Assembly (NCBI GenBank): GCA_913043225.1
Contig: CAJWLU010000001.1
Location: 288,001-352,000, forward strand
Direction: 5' to 3'
Length of the DNA: 64,000 nucleotides
From: an uncultured Acidobacteriota bacterium
GTDB taxonomy: Bacteria > Acidobacteriota > Vicinamibacteria > Vicinamibacterales > UBA8438
Numbering within the stretch: position 1 is the stretch's first letter; the number at the start of each line of letters is the position of its first letter. Below, piece by piece: positions 15,001-21,000 of this stretch. The position numbers were made by a program.

Positions 15001-18000
15001 GATCGGCCTCAAGCCAGAGCGCCAGCGGAAGATACTGCGCCGGAAACGTCTCGTGGTACTCAGTCGTGTCTTCGGTGGTAAACGCGTTCCCGGCCCCGCC
15101 GACACGCGAAATCAGCGTCAGGTGCGAATCGGGGAGAACGTTCTTGGACCCCTTGAACATCATGTGTTCGAAGAGATGAGCGAATCCGGTCCGTCCGGGG
15201 CGCTCATTCTTTGACCCGACCTTATAGACCAGCCTCGAGTGCACGATCGGCGTGGAGTGGTCCTCGGAGAGGATCACGGTAAGGCCGTTGTCGAGCGTGT
15301 GAAGCTCGTACTGGAACTTCGGGGGACGGACCGCGGTCTCGACACGCGACGTCGCGGCCAGCACACTAAGAACTGCGGCGGCGACACCCACCAAGGGGAG
15401 CCGACGGCCGAGGACGGACGGCATTCGACGCATGGCCGAATTATGGCACAGCGAGTGCGGTCGCACCGCGGCAGTCAGTGGCTTAGGAATCGGAAGCCGA
15501 GCATGGTGAAGGTCGTCGGCTCGAGGTCGAAAGGGTCCTGGTCGATGCGCCGTTCGCGGGCGAGGAACACCTCGCCAGCGCCGGCCAGACCGGGGAACCG
15601 GGCCCCGATCTCGATCCGGCTGCCAACCTGCCGCTCCCTTCCGAAGTCGCCGACGTCGACCGGGACAACCGTCACCTCGCCGCCCAACAGCAGCGACACC
15701 CGGGGATGCACCGGTCGATAGGCGGTGGCGCTCCCGCCAAACTCACCCAGGTAATCGACAAAGGACCGGCGGACGGTACCCATCGCGCGGTAGCTGAAAT
15801 CGAAATTCCAACCCCAGTACGACATTACCGCGGTGGATTGCAGCCCGAGCATGTTCCAAGCGATGGCGAGTTCCTTATCACGATCGGTTAGATGCCGTGA
15901 CACGTGATGGAAGACCGCGCCGACTTCCAGATGCTCGCTGATCGGGCGCCACCAGGCCGACAGGGTGATGACATAGTTGCCCTGGTTGGGGTCGATGGCC
16001 CGGATCTGCTCACCGATGATCCCCTCGTAGTTCAAGAGAAGATTGCCCCGGAAGTGCTCCAGGTCGAAGATGTCGATATCGCCGCCGAAATCAGTATCCC
16101 AGACGAAGTCCTCTTCGCCAGAGACCACGCCAAAGGCGTTCAGATGAAACCGATAGTTGGTCAGAAATCCTAGCTTGGGATCCGTCTGGCGGGCCGTCGA
16201 TGCCGCGCTGCTCGTCTGGGCCCAGGCCAGCCCTGGCCAGAAAAGCAGCACGACCGCCAGGACGAGAACCACGCGATCTCGATGCATCTCGTCGGTGACG
16301 CTCTGGAGTCGTTGAGCCGTGAAGCCGCTGAAAGTCGGGTCGAACCGGGCGAACTGCGCGGTGAGTGTAGCACGCTGACCGCTCGCCCCCGGCGTTGGTC
16401 AGCAACTTTCGGGCAGGGTGCGCTCAACGAACCTGGACAGATGTTCGAGCTGGAGTTGGTCGGCGATCGCGCGTAGCCGCCCCTGGCGTTCGGCCGGCGG
16501 CAACGATAGCACCTGGCGCACTTCACGGAGCGGCTCCGATGACTGCACTGACCACTCGACCGCCGTCAGCCCACGCCGGGCGCCGCGAAACGCCAGCCAG
16601 TGACCGCCCATCTTCCCGGCGAAGTACCAAGAAATAAGGTTCGGGCCCGGCACGAAGAAGAACAGTGGACCGAACACCAGCACCGCTAGTCCGTCGACCA
16701 CCATCCAGACGCGGTGGTGGTCCTGGTCCCGCTGCAACATCCCGTTTGCGATCGACCAGGCTCGGTTGGAAGGCAGGTCGGCGGGGTGGATCAAACTCGC
16801 GGTCTGCTGATGACGCAGATGCCACAGCAGCCGCTGCTCCGCCACCCACTCGGCCAGGCCGCGGATGAGACTCGCCTTCGCCCGAGCCACCCACCCCGTC
16901 TGCGCCTCGGAAAGCCGGGCGCCGGACTCGCGCTCGGCCTGCTCGGAGGCCATCAGCTCACGAAGCCGGCGGAGCAACCGGCTGGCAAACCCGCCACGTT
17001 CAGCCTGCTCTACCTCTCGTGGCTCGCAGTAGAGCTCGTAGCGGCCTTCTCCGCCCGGCACCAGAAAGACGTCCATGATCGGCTATCCAGCCTCTCCTTA
17101 GTACTTAGCGATGGCTCCCCGTACTTGACGATGGCTCCGCCGGGAAAATCCCCATTACCGGGTGGTCAGCCTGACGCCCCTCCGATACCATGCCGATCTA
17201 CCGATGCCCCAGCTGGCCAAACGCTCCTGTATGTGCCTCTGTGCCCTAGCGACGCTGGCGCTGCTCTCTGTCGCCTCGACGCGCGCCCAGCCCCCGGCGG
17301 TGACCCTGCAGGTACGGGTATTCGACGGCGTCGACGAGGTCACCGCCGACAGCGAGGTCACCGCCTACGTCACTGACGACCGTACGTCGGCGCTGGTGGC
17401 CACCTTCGCGAGTGAATCCCACTCGCTCGAACTGCAGCCGGGCATATACGACCTGCAGATCACCATGGACGGGATCGACGACACAGCCAGCGTCAAATGG
17501 TACAAGCATCTCTGGATTCAGCACTATCCGGATGAGTTAGCCGGGCACCTGGAGGTGCTGAACCTCCAAGCGGTTTTCGGCGCACTGCTGGTCCGTCCAC
17601 CGGCGGAATGGCTGGATAACGGACGGCCCTGGCATGTCGGCGCCTTCCTGACCGAAGGCGAAGGACGATCCGGATTCGAACCGGTCGAGTCCGAAGATCT
17701 GCGCCTTTTCATTCTGCCCGCCGGACACTATGACCTGAGAGCGCGCCACGGCGCGCGGGAACTAACCCGCGAGGCGGTCGAAGTACCGGCCGGCCGCACC
17801 CGCCTGATCCACCTCATTCCCTAAAAGGAATGGGCGCCGGAGACCAAGTCCCCGACGCCCAAGACTTTGTCCATCCACGGGGGATGGACCGGTGGTTCGG
17901 TTGGCCTAGCGGGCCAGCGGATCTGGCCGGAGCTGGAAGTGCACGATCTTGCTCTTCGTGCCCTTGCCGCCTTCGGTGTGCCAGATATAGTTCGAACCGT

Positions 18001-21000
18001 AGTTGGCCCAGAGCCCACGGCCCTTCCATCCAGCGTCTGGGTCGTCGATACGACCGTCGAGACCGCGGGAGTAGAACGCCATCGGATACGGCACCCGCAG
18101 GACCAGCCACTCGCCGGTGTCTGGGTCGAGAGCCAGCAGCGAGTCCGACGTCGACCCGTTGGCAATCGGGATGTTCTCGCCCATCCCAAGAGTGTTGTAC
18201 TGATCAACCCAGCTGTAGTAGTGGAAATCGGCACCGACATTGCCTTCCACGCCACGCATCTTCGGACCCGGCATCGGGTAGAGAGTCCATCCCTCTGGGC
18301 AGTGCTGACCGGTTGCGGTCGGCCCGTTCGTCACCGCGCACTTGCTGCGGTCGAAGCTGGCCATGTGGCTGCTGCCTGAAAGAGCGGCCCAGATGATGCC
18401 GTCGCGATCCACGTCGATGCCGCGAGGCGAGAACCCGGTCTCCATCGACCCGAGGTCCCCGTTCTCGATGGATGGCGGCTGATACATCTCGGCGATACAG
18501 GTCTCGGGCGGACTATCCCCTCGGTCAAGCCTGACAATCGCCCCTGGGAACGGTCCAGTCCTACTGATCCACGCGGCGTGGTCAGTCGGGTGCGCGATGA
18601 TGCCGTAGCCGAATCCGGCCACCCGACTATCCAGTGACGGGTCTGGGTTCTCTTCCCGCGGCTCGTTCCACGGCTTGGTGATCACACCGTCCCCGTTGGT
18701 GTCGAGCACGGTCGGGCACCAGCCCTGAGAGAATCGCTCGTCGCCAGTCTCATCGTACAGCTCCGTGTTCAGCCAGCCCACGACGTTGCCGTCGCCGCTG
18801 AACCAGAGGGTGTGCTCCTCGTCCTCACCGAACTGCAGGTGGTGTGTTCCGTAGCAAGTGTCCACCAGCACGAACCGCTCGCGCTCCGGGTCGTAATAGG
18901 ATGCGTGACGGCCGGAACGACCGACGGAGTAGTACTGGGCGTACGGATTGTCTGACCCCTCGCGGCACCAGTCGTCGTTCTGGAAGGGACGGATCGTCGA
19001 GGTCATCCAGAGACGGCCCTGGTGGTCCATCATCGGATTGTGCGGATCAGAACGCTCATTCGCACCCACACCCCAGAGCTCCTGATCGCCCCAGTAGTAC
19101 GACGGCGTGATCACGTCCGGGAAACGGGTGGGCATGACCTCGGGGTCGGGACGCACCGGAATGGTAAGTTCGGTCGCCGTATTGGCCACCGGGTCCACCA
19201 TCGTGATGGTGCCGTGCCCCGCCGAGACGCCGTAGACCGGCCCGTCCCCATTGAGCCGCGGGTCGCGCTTGTCGGTGACGATCTCATCGTGGATGAAGGA
19301 CGTGTCCTGGCCCCAGTCCCACAACGTCACCACAACGTTCCGCTCTGCGCCTGCCGGCCGAGGCGGCGCCTCCGGAACCTCACCCGCGGCGATACGGTCG
19401 GTCCAGTCCGCGAACATCTCGAGCGCAGGCTCACGCCCGAACCGATTCATAGCGTTACTCATCTGATTACCGCGCTGCCCGGTCTGGACGCGGTGGTCCC
19501 AGGCGGCTACGGTCGAGTCGAACTGGTCGCGCTCCTGCACGACACGGGTCGCCTCGTTCCCGAGCTGATGACACAGCTGGCACCCCTGCTTCATGTTGTC
19601 CACGAAGTGCGACTGCCTGCTCATGGCAGGGTTGATGCCGTTGCCACCGTTACCGGTACCCGGGAACTCGGAGGCCGGCGGCGGCTCGAGCAGCGAATAC
19701 CAGTAGTTGCCCGGATAGACCTGTGCCGCCGCCCGCGCGTCAGGCGCGATGACGGCGGTCAGCTCGACCCCTTCGGCCCCGGTAGTCAGCTGGACCTTCT
19801 CGGAGTCGACGAGCCCGTAGCCACGCACCCACACGTCGTAGGTGGCCTCCGGCATCTCGGGCAACACGAATCGTCCCCGGTCGTCGGTCACGACGATCTT
19901 GACGAACTTAGTCTCGAGCTCTTCGGTCTCGGCGATGACCCAGACCCCAGCCTCAGGCCCGTTGTCGCTGGCCACGGCCCCGGCGATTACGCCATCGGAC
20001 ATCGACGCGCCCTGACGAGCGGACGCGGTTGCGGTCCAAATGGCGACACCGAGCACCAGCACGAGCATCGGCACGAGCGAATAACGCTGGCGGATTGCGG
20101 TGCGCATATTCCTTATATCCTCTCCTCCGGGACGCACTTGACCCGGTCTATGGATGCGGTACCCGCGTACACTGTACCTGAGGCTCGGGAGGGGGGTCAA
20201 CGCCCCGGAGCATCGTTCTAGTGCTTGGCGCGGCGGATTCTGACCTGTATGATCTTGGGCTTGTTTGCACTCTTGATGCCCGCCTTTGTCCACGGCACAG
20301 CACTGACGCCGCCCTGTAGGAACGACGAATTTCCGTCATGAACCCGCAGTCCAGGAGTACACGACCGGCCCTCATGGCCCTACTGTCCGCCCTTGCCATC
20401 TGGCTGGGCGGCGGCGCCTATGTAATGCTCGGGGCGCAGCCGGAAGCACCGGAGGAGCCGCCCAGCGCCGAGACCGAAACGGTGGCCGATGCCACCGAGC
20501 AACCGATCGCCTTCAGTCACGAGCACCACGTCACCGAGATAGGCATCGAGTGCCAGTTCTGTCACGCCTACGCACGGCGAGGACCGGTCGCCGGGATCCC
20601 GCCGGTGCAGACGTGCGCTGGCTGTCACGAGGTTGTGCTGAACGAAGAACCAGAGATCCTCAAGGTCCTCGACTACTGGGAGAACGAGGAACCGATCCCT
20701 TGGGTGCGGGTACACAACCTCCCGGACTATGTGCGGTTCTCACACAAACCCCATATCCGCGCCGGCGTGAACTGCGCCGACTGCCATGGCGACGTGGGGT
20801 CGATGGAGGCGGCGGTGCAGGTCGAATCGCTCAGTATGGGCTGGTGCGTCACCTGTCACGAAGAGCAAGACGCCAACAAGGATTGCCTGGTGTGCCACTA
20901 CTGACCTGTCGACCGACCGGTTGGGTGCACGACATCAGGATGCGCGGATGGGCCGCGCGGGGAAGGACTCCTTGAACAAGGGCAACGACAGTCTGATCGA

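Follow-up and report, generated by a model that had tools for sequence, protein, structure and literature searches.

Which function should be assigned to an exported protein of 733 aa, encoded beside the genes of an alternative complex III (ACIII), that joins a CxxCH motif to a β-propeller? Our tentative answer, held with slightly less than even confidence, is that it acts as a periplasmic redox enzyme in which a haem c is fused to a propeller like that of streptogramin B lyase (Vgb), with catalysis at the propeller hub. The literature search found no paper describing the family and no experiment on any member.

The features discussed below are collected in Table 1, numbered along the window, that is, the whole stretch of 64,000 nucleotides analyzed. 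Within an open reading frame at 17906-20293 on the reverse strand, we place the start at the ATG at 20107, because homologues of 731-733 aa align with the resulting 733-aa product at 100% coverage. Read from the translation, the N terminus has a basic n-region, a hydrophobic core (L11-W24) and A-S-A preceding R31, and it lacks a lipobox Cys; the AlphaFold2 (AF2) pLDDT is below 50 at residues 1-10 and 26-36. The protein is predicted to be periplasmic, exported by the Sec route without lipidation. Downstream, a hairpin of 14 pairs (10 G-C) followed by a T-rich tail is weak evidence for a terminator, since the scan found one such site against 1.1 expected. The promoter-like site matches 9 of 12 consensus positions in a region with three sites against 0.4 expected, a match that is no evidence of function. 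The family is large and transcribed: at 95-100% identity, the gene is covered by contigs from four marine RNA libraries (four studies), and in the homologue search we reproduced the earlier result that 8,000 of 8,000 scored candidates are homologous, with 70-100% identity among the 120 listed.

Table 1. Positions, strands and basis of assignment of the features discussed
Feature	Position	Strand	Basis
Gene for the 733-aa protein	17906..20107	-	ORF list and translation; stop codon 17906-17908, ATG 20105-20107
Predicted Sec-type signal peptide, residues 1-30	20018..20107	-	Read from translation
CarboxypepD_reg-like β-sandwich, residues 41-117	19757..19987	-	Pfam PF13620 below cut-off, model, hhalign
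Helical CxxCH module, residues 118-250, putative mono-haem cytochrome c domain	19358..19756	-	Domain model, weak Cytochrome_CBB3 match
Haem-c attachment motif C176-Q-L-C179-H180	19568..19582	-	Conservation
M216 codon, candidate sixth haem ligand	19460..19462	-	Conservation; ligand role inferred
Seven-bladed propeller with long insertions, residues 251-733	17909..19357	-	DSSP strands of model, 2z2n alignment, conservation
Terminator-like hairpin, 45 bases past the stop codon	17831..17861	-	Consensus scan
Promoter-like site in the 230-base divergent spacer common to the ACIII operon	20171..20200	-	Consensus scan
ACIII genes, divergent neighbor	20338..25839	+	Pfam
Second paralogue, 60% identical	42805..45018	-	tblastn match 42811-44901; true start uncertain
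TonB-dependent receptor with CarboxypepD_reg N-domain	40283..42715	-	Pfam; directly downstream of the second paralogue

From N to C terminus, the full-length AF2 model (36 rows, pLDDT 90.1, pTM 0.88) predicts a β-sandwich, a small helical module carrying the CxxCH motif and a seven-bladed propeller. The three-domain exported architecture given in the preliminary description is borne out by the translation, for the signal peptide, and by the model, for the domains. Its statement that no family model covers the protein also stands: the Pfam scan gave nothing above cut-off, NCBIfam no match at E≤1, and phmmer against PDB sequences none at E≤10. The sole Pfam match, CarboxypepD_reg (PF13620; 22 bits against a cut-off of 32.3, E 2.2e-4), falls on the sandwich, a region of seven strands in the model that aligns by hhalign with the sandwich of a sister family, which does pass the Pfam cut-off. 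The more than 150 residues said to be invariant across 33 homologues were not recovered, as the 36-row alignment holds 11 strictly invariant columns and 90 further columns conserved at ≥90%; in an alignment of 90 sequences, 34-85% identical to the 733-aa protein, 88 positions are conserved at ≥95%.

The best structural match of the propeller is Vgb, in agreement with the earlier proposal of a Vgb-like seven-bladed fold. In Foldseek searches of the PDB, Vgb or streptogramin B lyase takes ranks 1-5 and 10 (E 5e-10 to 2.9e-8, TM on target 0.74-0.81), ahead of generic propellers, and at least 500 matches reach E≤0.001. VIA-align superposes 289 of the 293 residues of 2z2n_A on model range 257-727 (Z 25.1, rmsd 2.4), while the next propeller after Vgb lyase lies 4 Z units lower (Z 21.1), and Vgb lyase is also the top PDB sequence match of the family profile (E 0.0068). 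In every blade, the innermost strand or its immediate surroundings carry residues that are conserved at 83-99% in the 90 sequences (H273, D274, H356, D361, H423, Y501, R562, Y630, D635, R686 and D688). In our reading the propeller is of the Vgb/NHL type, and highly conserved His, Tyr, Arg and Asp would line its central channel. The propeller also carries a DTNGDG loop at 469-474 and H710/E712, and C381/C418 and C590/C603 likely form disulfides. Of the positions previously listed as invariant here, C381, C418, H423, C603 and H710 are indeed conserved, but at 96%, 96%, 96%, 99% and 89% of the 90 sequences.

The family had been proposed as a new class, but hhalign shows that it does not stand wholly apart. 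Aligned with a sister family whose members match Pfam Vgb_lyase (PF24684), it gives a probability of 99.6% (E 4.6e-24, 447 columns) with CxxCH on CxxCH, in an alignment that extends across sandwich, haem module and blades 1-5 of the propeller; the sister profile itself matches 2qc5 at E 7e-35. Profile comparison thus places the 733-aa protein and its relatives in a divergent, insertion-rich branch of sandwich-cytochrome c-Vgb_lyase proteins. Sister proteins (among them the product of a gene of this genome, at L089:7070-9034 on contig C21, and P0272) have the same domain order, CarboxypepD_reg, CxxCH and Vgb_lyase, and the two families share an ankyrin-DUF1592-DUF1552 neighborhood: the C21 gene, the only one in the genome to pass PF24684, sits in such an operon. 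Unlike the family, sister proteins are 590-650 aa long, and their compact propeller scores 112-119 bits with PF24684, above its cut-off of 50 bits, whereas this model gives no match at E≤1 on the 733-aa protein. Their hubs differ as well, with E282/Y283, Y452, R495/R496 and Y542 in the sister family against H273/D274, H423, Y501 and R562 here, and the blade-2 His as the sole residue in common. The JGI name of the sister proteins, 'streptogramin lyase', is an automatic label, and they are likewise uncharacterized.

Across the genome, tblastn finds nine places, consistent with the paralogue set reported before: seven full copies (43-62% identical to the 733-aa protein), one copy cut by the start of contig C44 and a 226-aa fragment at the end of C46. 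The eight copies represent old subfamilies, each with its own conserved neighbors, be they ACIII, a TonB receptor, PQQ dehydrogenases or a DUF1592-DUF1552-ankyrin trio, and they probably serve different substrates or partners. ACIII (an ActA-like multihaem protein, an ActB-like molybdopterin/FeS protein, an NrfD-type ActC, and ActD) marks four clade-A rows, namely the 733-aa gene and its orthologues L009, L010 and L012, while the pairing of the second paralogue in the window with a TonB-dependent receptor recurs in the orthologous locus L024. Among the homologue loci, contexts vary by subfamily and there is no universal neighbor. The family is common in Vicinamibacterales, occurring in 16 of 24 genomes of that order, and rare elsewhere in the phylum (4 of 276); with a presence in 21 of 301 sampled genomes (G000 included), mostly from the same order, 'widespread in Acidobacteriota' was too broad a description. 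Members also occur in metagenome-assembled genomes of Gammaproteobacteria and Gemmatimonadota.

Alternatively, the protein could serve in the periplasm as an electron carrier or adaptor without catalysis of its own, whose haem c shuttles electrons while the propeller docks subfamily-specific partners, with the DUF1592-DUF1552-ankyrin trio, ACIII, the TonB-dependent receptor and PQQ dehydrogenases as candidates. Propellers are often binding platforms, and the VIA matches are mostly WD40 scaffolds. A DUF1592/DUF1552 gene lies within 2 kb of four of the nine copies, against 7% of random places (binomial tail 0.002); a DUF1592 protein is found in 16 of 88 homologue loci, from several phyla, and one Gammaproteobacteria clade keeps the order T-(VOC)-DUF1592-DUF1552-ankyrin in 6/6 loci. 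The C21 sister gene lies in the same type of operon. DUF1592 occurs in 18 of 21 family-bearing genomes as against 46 of 280 without the family, a tally that takes in the unpublished genome G049 and in which related genomes are not independent. Of the 32 trios in the genome, 28 lack a family copy nearby. On the other side, three genomes that are 99-100% complete (G086, G122 and G157) hold the family with no DUF1592 match. Moreover, the conserved residues gather on the innermost strands and not on the outer surface, as one would sooner expect of a pocket than of a surface for docking, and the hub stays constant while partners change between subfamilies. We consider a purely carrying or docking role unlikely.

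A redox enzyme is plausible by analogy, because certain well-known redox enzymes of the periplasm likewise combine haem c with a propeller and because the genome appears rich in haem-c-fused periplasmic enzymes; in a genome-wide HMM scan, PQQ-propeller ORFs number 113 and haem-c PHM-like ORFs 19. The propeller hub would bind a small substrate, polar or anionic, perhaps together with a metal ion, and there it would be oxidized or reduced; the fused haem c would pass the electron on to the periplasmic cytochrome pool (ACIII, terminal oxidases) or receive it from there. No cofactor site, metal site, substrate or fixed redox partner emerged from sequence, model or neighbors. The varying contexts and the three genomes lacking DUF1592 also count against this proposal, as does the fact that its sole characterized relatives, the Vgb enzymes, are non-redox Mg2+-dependent lyases. 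Furthermore, the Asp/Glu residues and the DTNGDG loop would equally suit a Ca2+/Mg2+ hydrolase or lyase, or structural metal sites.

The protein might instead act on an ester, a lactone or a similar bond, as a Vgb/lactonase-type hydrolase or lyase that depends on a metal, with the CxxCH module as a structural or regulatory appendage. Homology to the Vgb_lyase family and a channel lined by conserved Asp/Glu/His agree with this, and hydrolases adjoin some subfamilies: amidase, patatin and amidohydrolase in clade E, and metallo-β-lactamase-fold proteins in 14 of 88 loci. CylK offers a precedent, as a Vgb-like seven-bladed propeller recruited for other, non-Vgb chemistry (PMC8916777). We rate such an activity as improbable: a non-redox enzyme would hardly be expected to keep the full haem motif and a distal Met, as 59-91 homologues do, and the blade register implied by the structural alignment suggests that Y630 and R686-D688 stand where Vgb has H228 and E268/H270.

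As first described, C176-x-x-C179-H180 is present in 7/7 full paralogues and in 91/91 homologous domains from the homologue loci, and it is conserved at 97-98% in the 90-sequence alignment; C176, C179, H180 and M216 (C59, C62, H63 and M99 in domain-alignment numbering) are invariant in 59/59 aligned domains, and M216 is present in 97% of the 90 sequences. Most likely, C176 and C179 would hold one haem c covalently, with axial coordination by H180 and M216. For the domain model of the module (pLDDT 92.2), Foldseek gives nothing at E≤0.001, and VIA a best Z of 3.9, with the cytochrome SorB (2blf_B) at just Z 2.4. Cytochrome_CBB3 matches 17 of 59 members (best E 0.0082; 12.8 bits against a cut-off of 27 on the 733-aa protein) and Cytochrom_C four, all below cut-off. 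A haem-free alternative, in which the cysteine pair makes a disulfide or binds a metal within a helical linker domain, would fit the lack of any Pfam cytochrome match at cut-off among the 59 members, but is very improbable given the invariance of Cys, Cys, His and distal Met, the export of the protein, the cytochrome c maturation system of the genome (three PF01578 matches) and the sister family, whose homologous module matches SorB, a cytochrome c of solved structure (2blf_B, E 7.4e-4), and in some proteins carries PF00034.

Beyond the single protein, the family and its sister might together form an undescribed class of periplasmic oxidoreductases, in which the hub of a Vgb-type propeller holds a metal or substrate site (H273/H356/H423, Tyr, Arg) wired to the fused haem c and interchangeable, substrate-specific subfamilies feed DUF1592-DUF1552-ankyrin, ACIII or TonB-dependent uptake, an extension that we regard as possible but doubtful.

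Among known systems, Vgb (PDB 2z2n, 2z2o, 2z2p and 2qc5) shares the seven-bladed propeller but is a single domain of ~300 aa, without sandwich or haem module, and is shorter than the propeller here, which spans 483 residues with long insertions and leaves PF24684 silent. The residues that we take to be its Mg2+-binding and catalytic set are H228, E268 and H270, together with Y18 and E284, and the first three are apparently not kept here, judging from blade register. The PDB title of 2z2p describes Vgb H270A as inactive. The layout proposed for the 733-aa protein is that of the quinohaemoprotein (type II) alcohol dehydrogenases and cytochrome cd1 nitrite reductase, periplasmic enzymes in which a c-type cytochrome domain is joined to an active-site propeller. 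Their propellers have eight blades and hold PQQ or haem d1, whereas here the propeller is seven-bladed, the cytochrome module is N-terminal, no cofactor was identified and the Pfam scan gives no match to the PQQ propeller (PF01011). In structural description, CylK resembles the protein by its C-terminal propeller, which has long loops and Ca2+ sites and is joined to a further domain, and differs in its N-terminal Ca2+-binding domain, its lack of haem and its role as an alkylation catalyst (PMC8916777).

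The gene claimed in the preliminary description (paralogue A, the target) is real: it occupies an open frame at 17906-20293 on the reverse strand, and its ATG at 20107 yields 733 residues, a start matched by dozens of homologues with 731-733 residues and full query cover. The sequence of residues 1-30 reads as a signal of Sec type, with three arginines, a hydrophobic core and A-S-A before R31, and inspection of this region showed no lipobox cysteine. By tblastn, the protein matches nine places in the studied genome (3.85 Mb in 55 contigs, completeness 96%). Seven copies are full and share 43-62% identity with the target, another is truncated by the start of contig C44, and a 226-residue fragment lies at the end of contig C46, which bears out the earlier count of eight paralogues and one fragment. 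Nine is also the highest number of copies per genome in the family. Long antisense ORFs overlie the target gene and likewise its counterparts in many loci, a by-product of the 65% G+C content; in 18 loci the antisense frame exceeded the true gene in length and was taken by a greedy ORF caller (20 ORFs, cluster 3), and we rejected a 716-aa ORF beside the C46 fragment (cluster 11) as an Arg-rich antisense reading. The ORF convergent with the target gene matched no family besides CarboxypepD_reg (E 1.3e-4, under cut-off).

Features of the target family, its sister family and their surroundings (C, contigs of the studied genome; hub percentages are from 90 aligned sequences, domain limits from the AlphaFold2 (AF2) model)
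Feature	Position	Strand	Remarks
Target gene, paralogue A	window 17906-20107	-	733 aa
Second copy in the window	window 42805-45018	-	
Convergent ORF	window 17162-17824	+	220 aa
Antisense ORF over target gene	window 19022-20221	+	399 aa
Genes beside the second paralogue	window 45356-51761		aldehyde dehydrogenase, MFS transporter, short-chain fatty acid transporter, methyltransferase, GSDH (soluble glucose/sorbosone dehydrogenase)
Paralogue E and flanking genes	C7:83056-89015		amidase, target family, patatin
Sister protein P0272	neighbour gene in locus L059		591 aa
Sister protein P0273	L089:7070-9034 = C21:41069-43033	+	
DUF1592-type (PSD/PSCyt3), example	C21:35773-41092		
ACHE-motif gene beside paralogue C	C5:71231-72214	+	
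ACHE-motif gene	C36:10676-11629	+	
Beta-sandwich	residues 41-117		
Helical module	residues about 118-250		CxxCH at end of long helix
Propeller	residues 258 to 726		28 strands in seven four-stranded blades, long insertions
Blade 1, on or beside innermost strand	H273, D274		96%, 96%
Blade 2, likewise	H356, D361		83%, 97%
Blade 3, likewise	H423; C418 just before		96%; 96%
Blade 4, likewise	Y501		96%
Blade 5, likewise	R562, D565		90%, 90%
Blade 6, likewise	Y630, D635		98%, 99%
Blade 7, likewise	R686, D688		99%, 98%

The family is large. All 8000 of 8000 scored candidates in a 90%-identity cluster database are homologues (at least 8000 clusters), and HMMER over 50%-identity representatives found 5541 proteins at E<=0.001, of which 946 reach E<=1e-30, with numerous fragments. 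Where homologues bear a database name, it is 'carboxypeptidase regulatory-like domain-containing protein' or 'hypothetical protein'. CarboxypepD_reg is the sole Pfam match of the target and is sub-threshold (22 bits versus 32.3); searches of the target gave no match in NCBIfam at E<=1 and none by phmmer against PDB sequences at E<=10. An atlas search with the whole protein returned solely the family's own unnamed clusters (0.99), and one with the propeller part returned NHL/SGL clusters at 0.82-0.84, under the level that counts. We found no paper on the family in the literature searched. A search for longer forms yielded one protein, P0394 (1584 aa, 'Acylamidase [Geodia barretti]'), which was rejected as a true fusion: we read it as a merged gene model, because its order of amidase, target family and patatin copies that of the separate genes around paralogue E. 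It probably comes from a bacterial contig in a sponge assembly.

The AF2 model of the target (pLDDT 90.1, pTM 0.88; 36-row alignment) comprises a sandwich, a helical module and a propeller. In Foldseek against the PDB, virginiamycin B (streptogramin B) lyase, Vgb, takes ranks 1-5 and 10 (E 5e-10 to 2.9e-8, TM on target 0.74-0.81), a ranking that alone is generic, since at least 500 other chains pass E 0.001. VIA-align, which is independent of Foldseek, is more telling for the Vgb likeness of the predicted structure: the lyase structure 2z2n scores Z 25.1 (rmsd 2.4, 289/293 residues) and the next 49 rows, chiefly WD40 proteins, Z 21.1-19.4. At the sequence level, the best PDB match of the family profile is the streptogramin lyase 2qc5, at a weak E of 0.0068.

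We also describe a sister family that carries Pfam Vgb_lyase (PF24684), an addition to what the preliminary description contained. Two members, P0272 and P0273, have the same domain order as the target, with CarboxypepD_reg above cut-off, CxxCH motifs reading CSVCH and CMACH, and a compact propeller scoring 112-119 bits against PF24684 (cut-off 50; the C21 gene, with CMACH, at 111.9 bits). JGI labels on sister homologues read 'streptogramin lyase' or 'virginiamycin B lyase', and a few have PF00034. Profile-profile alignment of the two families reaches 99.6% probability (E 4.6e-24, 447 columns), spanning the sandwich, setting CxxCH on CxxCH and running to the fifth blade, while the sister profile matches 2qc5 at E 7e-35. 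These profile links through the PF24684-bearing sister family, with the 2qc5 matches, make the fold likeness between target and Vgb one of homology. The target family thus forms a branch, divergent and rich in insertions, within a wider group of propeller proteins that carry a haem motif. On contig C21, the sister gene comes last in a series of ankyrin, DUF1592 and DUF1552 genes that lie on one strand, with spacers that are short or overlap.

Conservation in the propeller was read from 90 sequences 34-85% identical to the target: the query, 69 ORFs of 640-860 aa from the loci and the studied genome, and 20 full-length representatives, with loci where the caller had picked an antisense ORF omitted. 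Every blade contributes conserved residues on or beside its innermost strand (table), and R526, D586, R671, K695 and E712 (97-99%) and H710 (89%) are conserved further. For the cysteines C381/C418 and C590/C603, kept at 96-99%, the simplest reading is that they form disulfides, the protein being exported, and the loop D469-T-N-G-D-G, with a weak EF-hand_5 match, looks like a calcium loop. The blade-2 His is the only hub residue common to target and sister families; as the other hub positions differ, each family has its own strictly conserved hub. In the target, this hub would be a functional site. A non-catalytic carrier or adaptor is an unlikely reading, though one to keep in mind.

In Vgb, alignments place R-P-H228 and E268-P-H270 in the 'P-Y-G' slot where the innermost strands of blades 6 and 7 start, and H270 is Ala in the inactive mutant 2z2p. 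Going by the blade register that VIA-align implies (a motif register, not a residue-level superposition), Y630 and R686/D688 stand at these places in the target. Since these residues hold the places of H228 and E268/H270, the Mg2+ site of Vgb is apparently not retained. A haem-independent hydrolase or lyase is rather improbable.

All 91 homologous domains that tblastn detected in the loci studied have CxxCH in the helical module. Alignment of 59 domains shows C176, C179, H180, W203, M216 and W235 to be invariant, and M216 is the sole conserved candidate for a sixth ligand. Pfam cytochrome signals among the 59 members are weak and all under cut-off: 17 match Cytochrome_CBB3 (best E 0.0082), 5 match PSCyt3 and 4 match Cytochrom_C. 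SorB cytochrome c, whose structure is solved, is matched by the sister profile at E 7.4e-4, and the studied genome has cytochrome c assembly genes. Folded alone, the module reaches pLDDT 92.2; with it, Foldseek against the PDB returned nothing at E<=0.001 and 13 rows at E<=10, none of them a cytochrome, and VIA-align over 48,161 chains returned no Z>=5 (best 3.9; SorB cytochrome c, Z 2.4). Judged by its sequence, the target very likely binds haem covalently, at this CxxCH module; that it carries no haem at all is highly improbable beside the invariant motif.

The family occurs in 21 of 301 sampled genomes of the phylum, the studied genome counted among the 21: 16 of 24 in the same order and 4 of 276 elsewhere. 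Only three candidates per genome were scored in this sample, so copy numbers are not given. Part of the target gene is found in 17 RNA-recorded runs, 10 of which hold 0.2 or more of the sampled words. Across 16800-21800, most of the gene is matched at 95-100% identity by contigs of four marine metatranscriptome runs, each from a different study (for example, a contig of 1615 bases with 13 differences over 17999-19613); 17134-17801 and the stretch beyond 21476 have no contig from these runs, holes that prove nothing. The contigs fit an expressed target gene and cannot prove transcription or its levels.

To describe the genetic context, we used the best 80 of 620 confirmed pattern matches (620/622), on contigs of one genome per species, and the nine places of the studied genome; ORFs of at least 90 aa were called by a greedy script and clustered by blastp. 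By database record, the 80 loci include 12 Proteobacteria MAGs, mostly Gammaproteobacteria, and 3 Gemmatimonadota, the rest being Acidobacteriota. Within about 8 kb, the 88 loci with a called target have no universal neighbour; the neighbours are PQQ-type propellers (29 loci), DUF1592-type (PSD/PSCyt3) proteins (16), ankyrin proteins (15), metallo-beta-lactamase-fold proteins (14), DUF1552 (13), NHL proteins (9) and TonB-dependent receptors (7). In a FastTree phylogeny of the 90 aligned sequences, midpoint rooted, the seven full copies of the studied genome are spread over separate clades together with orthologues of other genomes, and context tracks clade. Clade B has a TonB-dependent receptor directly downstream, clades D and E have PQQ dehydrogenases (clade E also an amidase and a patatin), and the DUF1592-DUF1552-ankyrin trio accompanies clade F as well as one clade made up of six loci from Gammaproteobacteria. 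The trio is also close to paralogue H, the remaining members of its clade being database representatives without a locus. In clade A, four rows (the target gene, L009, L010 and L012) bear an alternative complex III mark, found elsewhere only in L051, and we rejected this complex as a fixed partner.

Four of the nine copies in the studied genome have a DUF1592 or DUF1552 gene no more than 2 kb away, versus 7% for places picked at random (binomial tail 0.002). Of the 301 genomes, 64 contain DUF1592, a tally that includes the unpublished genome G049, and in 18 of the 21 family-positive ones. The other three (G086, G122 and G157, 99-100% complete) have the family without DUF1592, so the trio is a frequent associate of some subfamilies and not a requirement, and DUF1592/DUF1552 was rejected as an obligatory partner. 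Conversely, most of the 32 DUF1592 genes of the studied genome have neighbours other than the target family. Most adjoin a DUF1552 and an ankyrin-repeat gene, and the exported genes on their flanks vary (PQQ propellers, haem-c PHM-like, NHL, MBL-fold, VOC), an arrangement that resembles a modular locus system. An exported family of ~250-360 aa, which matches nothing in Pfam and shows towards its C-terminus a motif resembling F/Y-E-Y-A-C-H-E-x-N-Y, has 87 non-overlapping ORFs in the studied genome (HMM) and occurs in 16 of the 88 loci, often near DUF1592 modules; in one case a longer member carries DUF6152. The clusters of aldehyde dehydrogenase and MFS genes beside the second paralogue recur in the orthologous loci L024 and L042.

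Taken together, our findings describe a protein that is exported, has three domains and belongs to a large conserved family with homology to the Vgb_lyase superfamily; its haem-c motif is invariant and its polar hub strictly conserved. We tentatively favor a redox enzyme, in which haem and hub may communicate as in other periplasmic cytochrome c-propeller fusion enzymes. The family is a testable candidate for new haem-linked propeller chemistry in the Vicinamibacterales, which are abundant in sea and soil, and offers a handle on the uncharacterized trio systems. The haem-motif branch of the superfamily is itself uncharacterized and probably misnamed: given the superfamily link, the many proteins of environmental genomes that are labelled 'streptogramin lyase' are probably haem proteins of other function and do not signal antibiotic resistance. 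Unlike quinohaemoproteins, the target has seven blades and no PQQ model match, and is not one of them; unlike a functional Vgb lyase, it has other domains, no PF24684 match and an apparently lost catalytic site. It is best described as a new variant inside the haem-motif branch of the Vgb_lyase superfamily.
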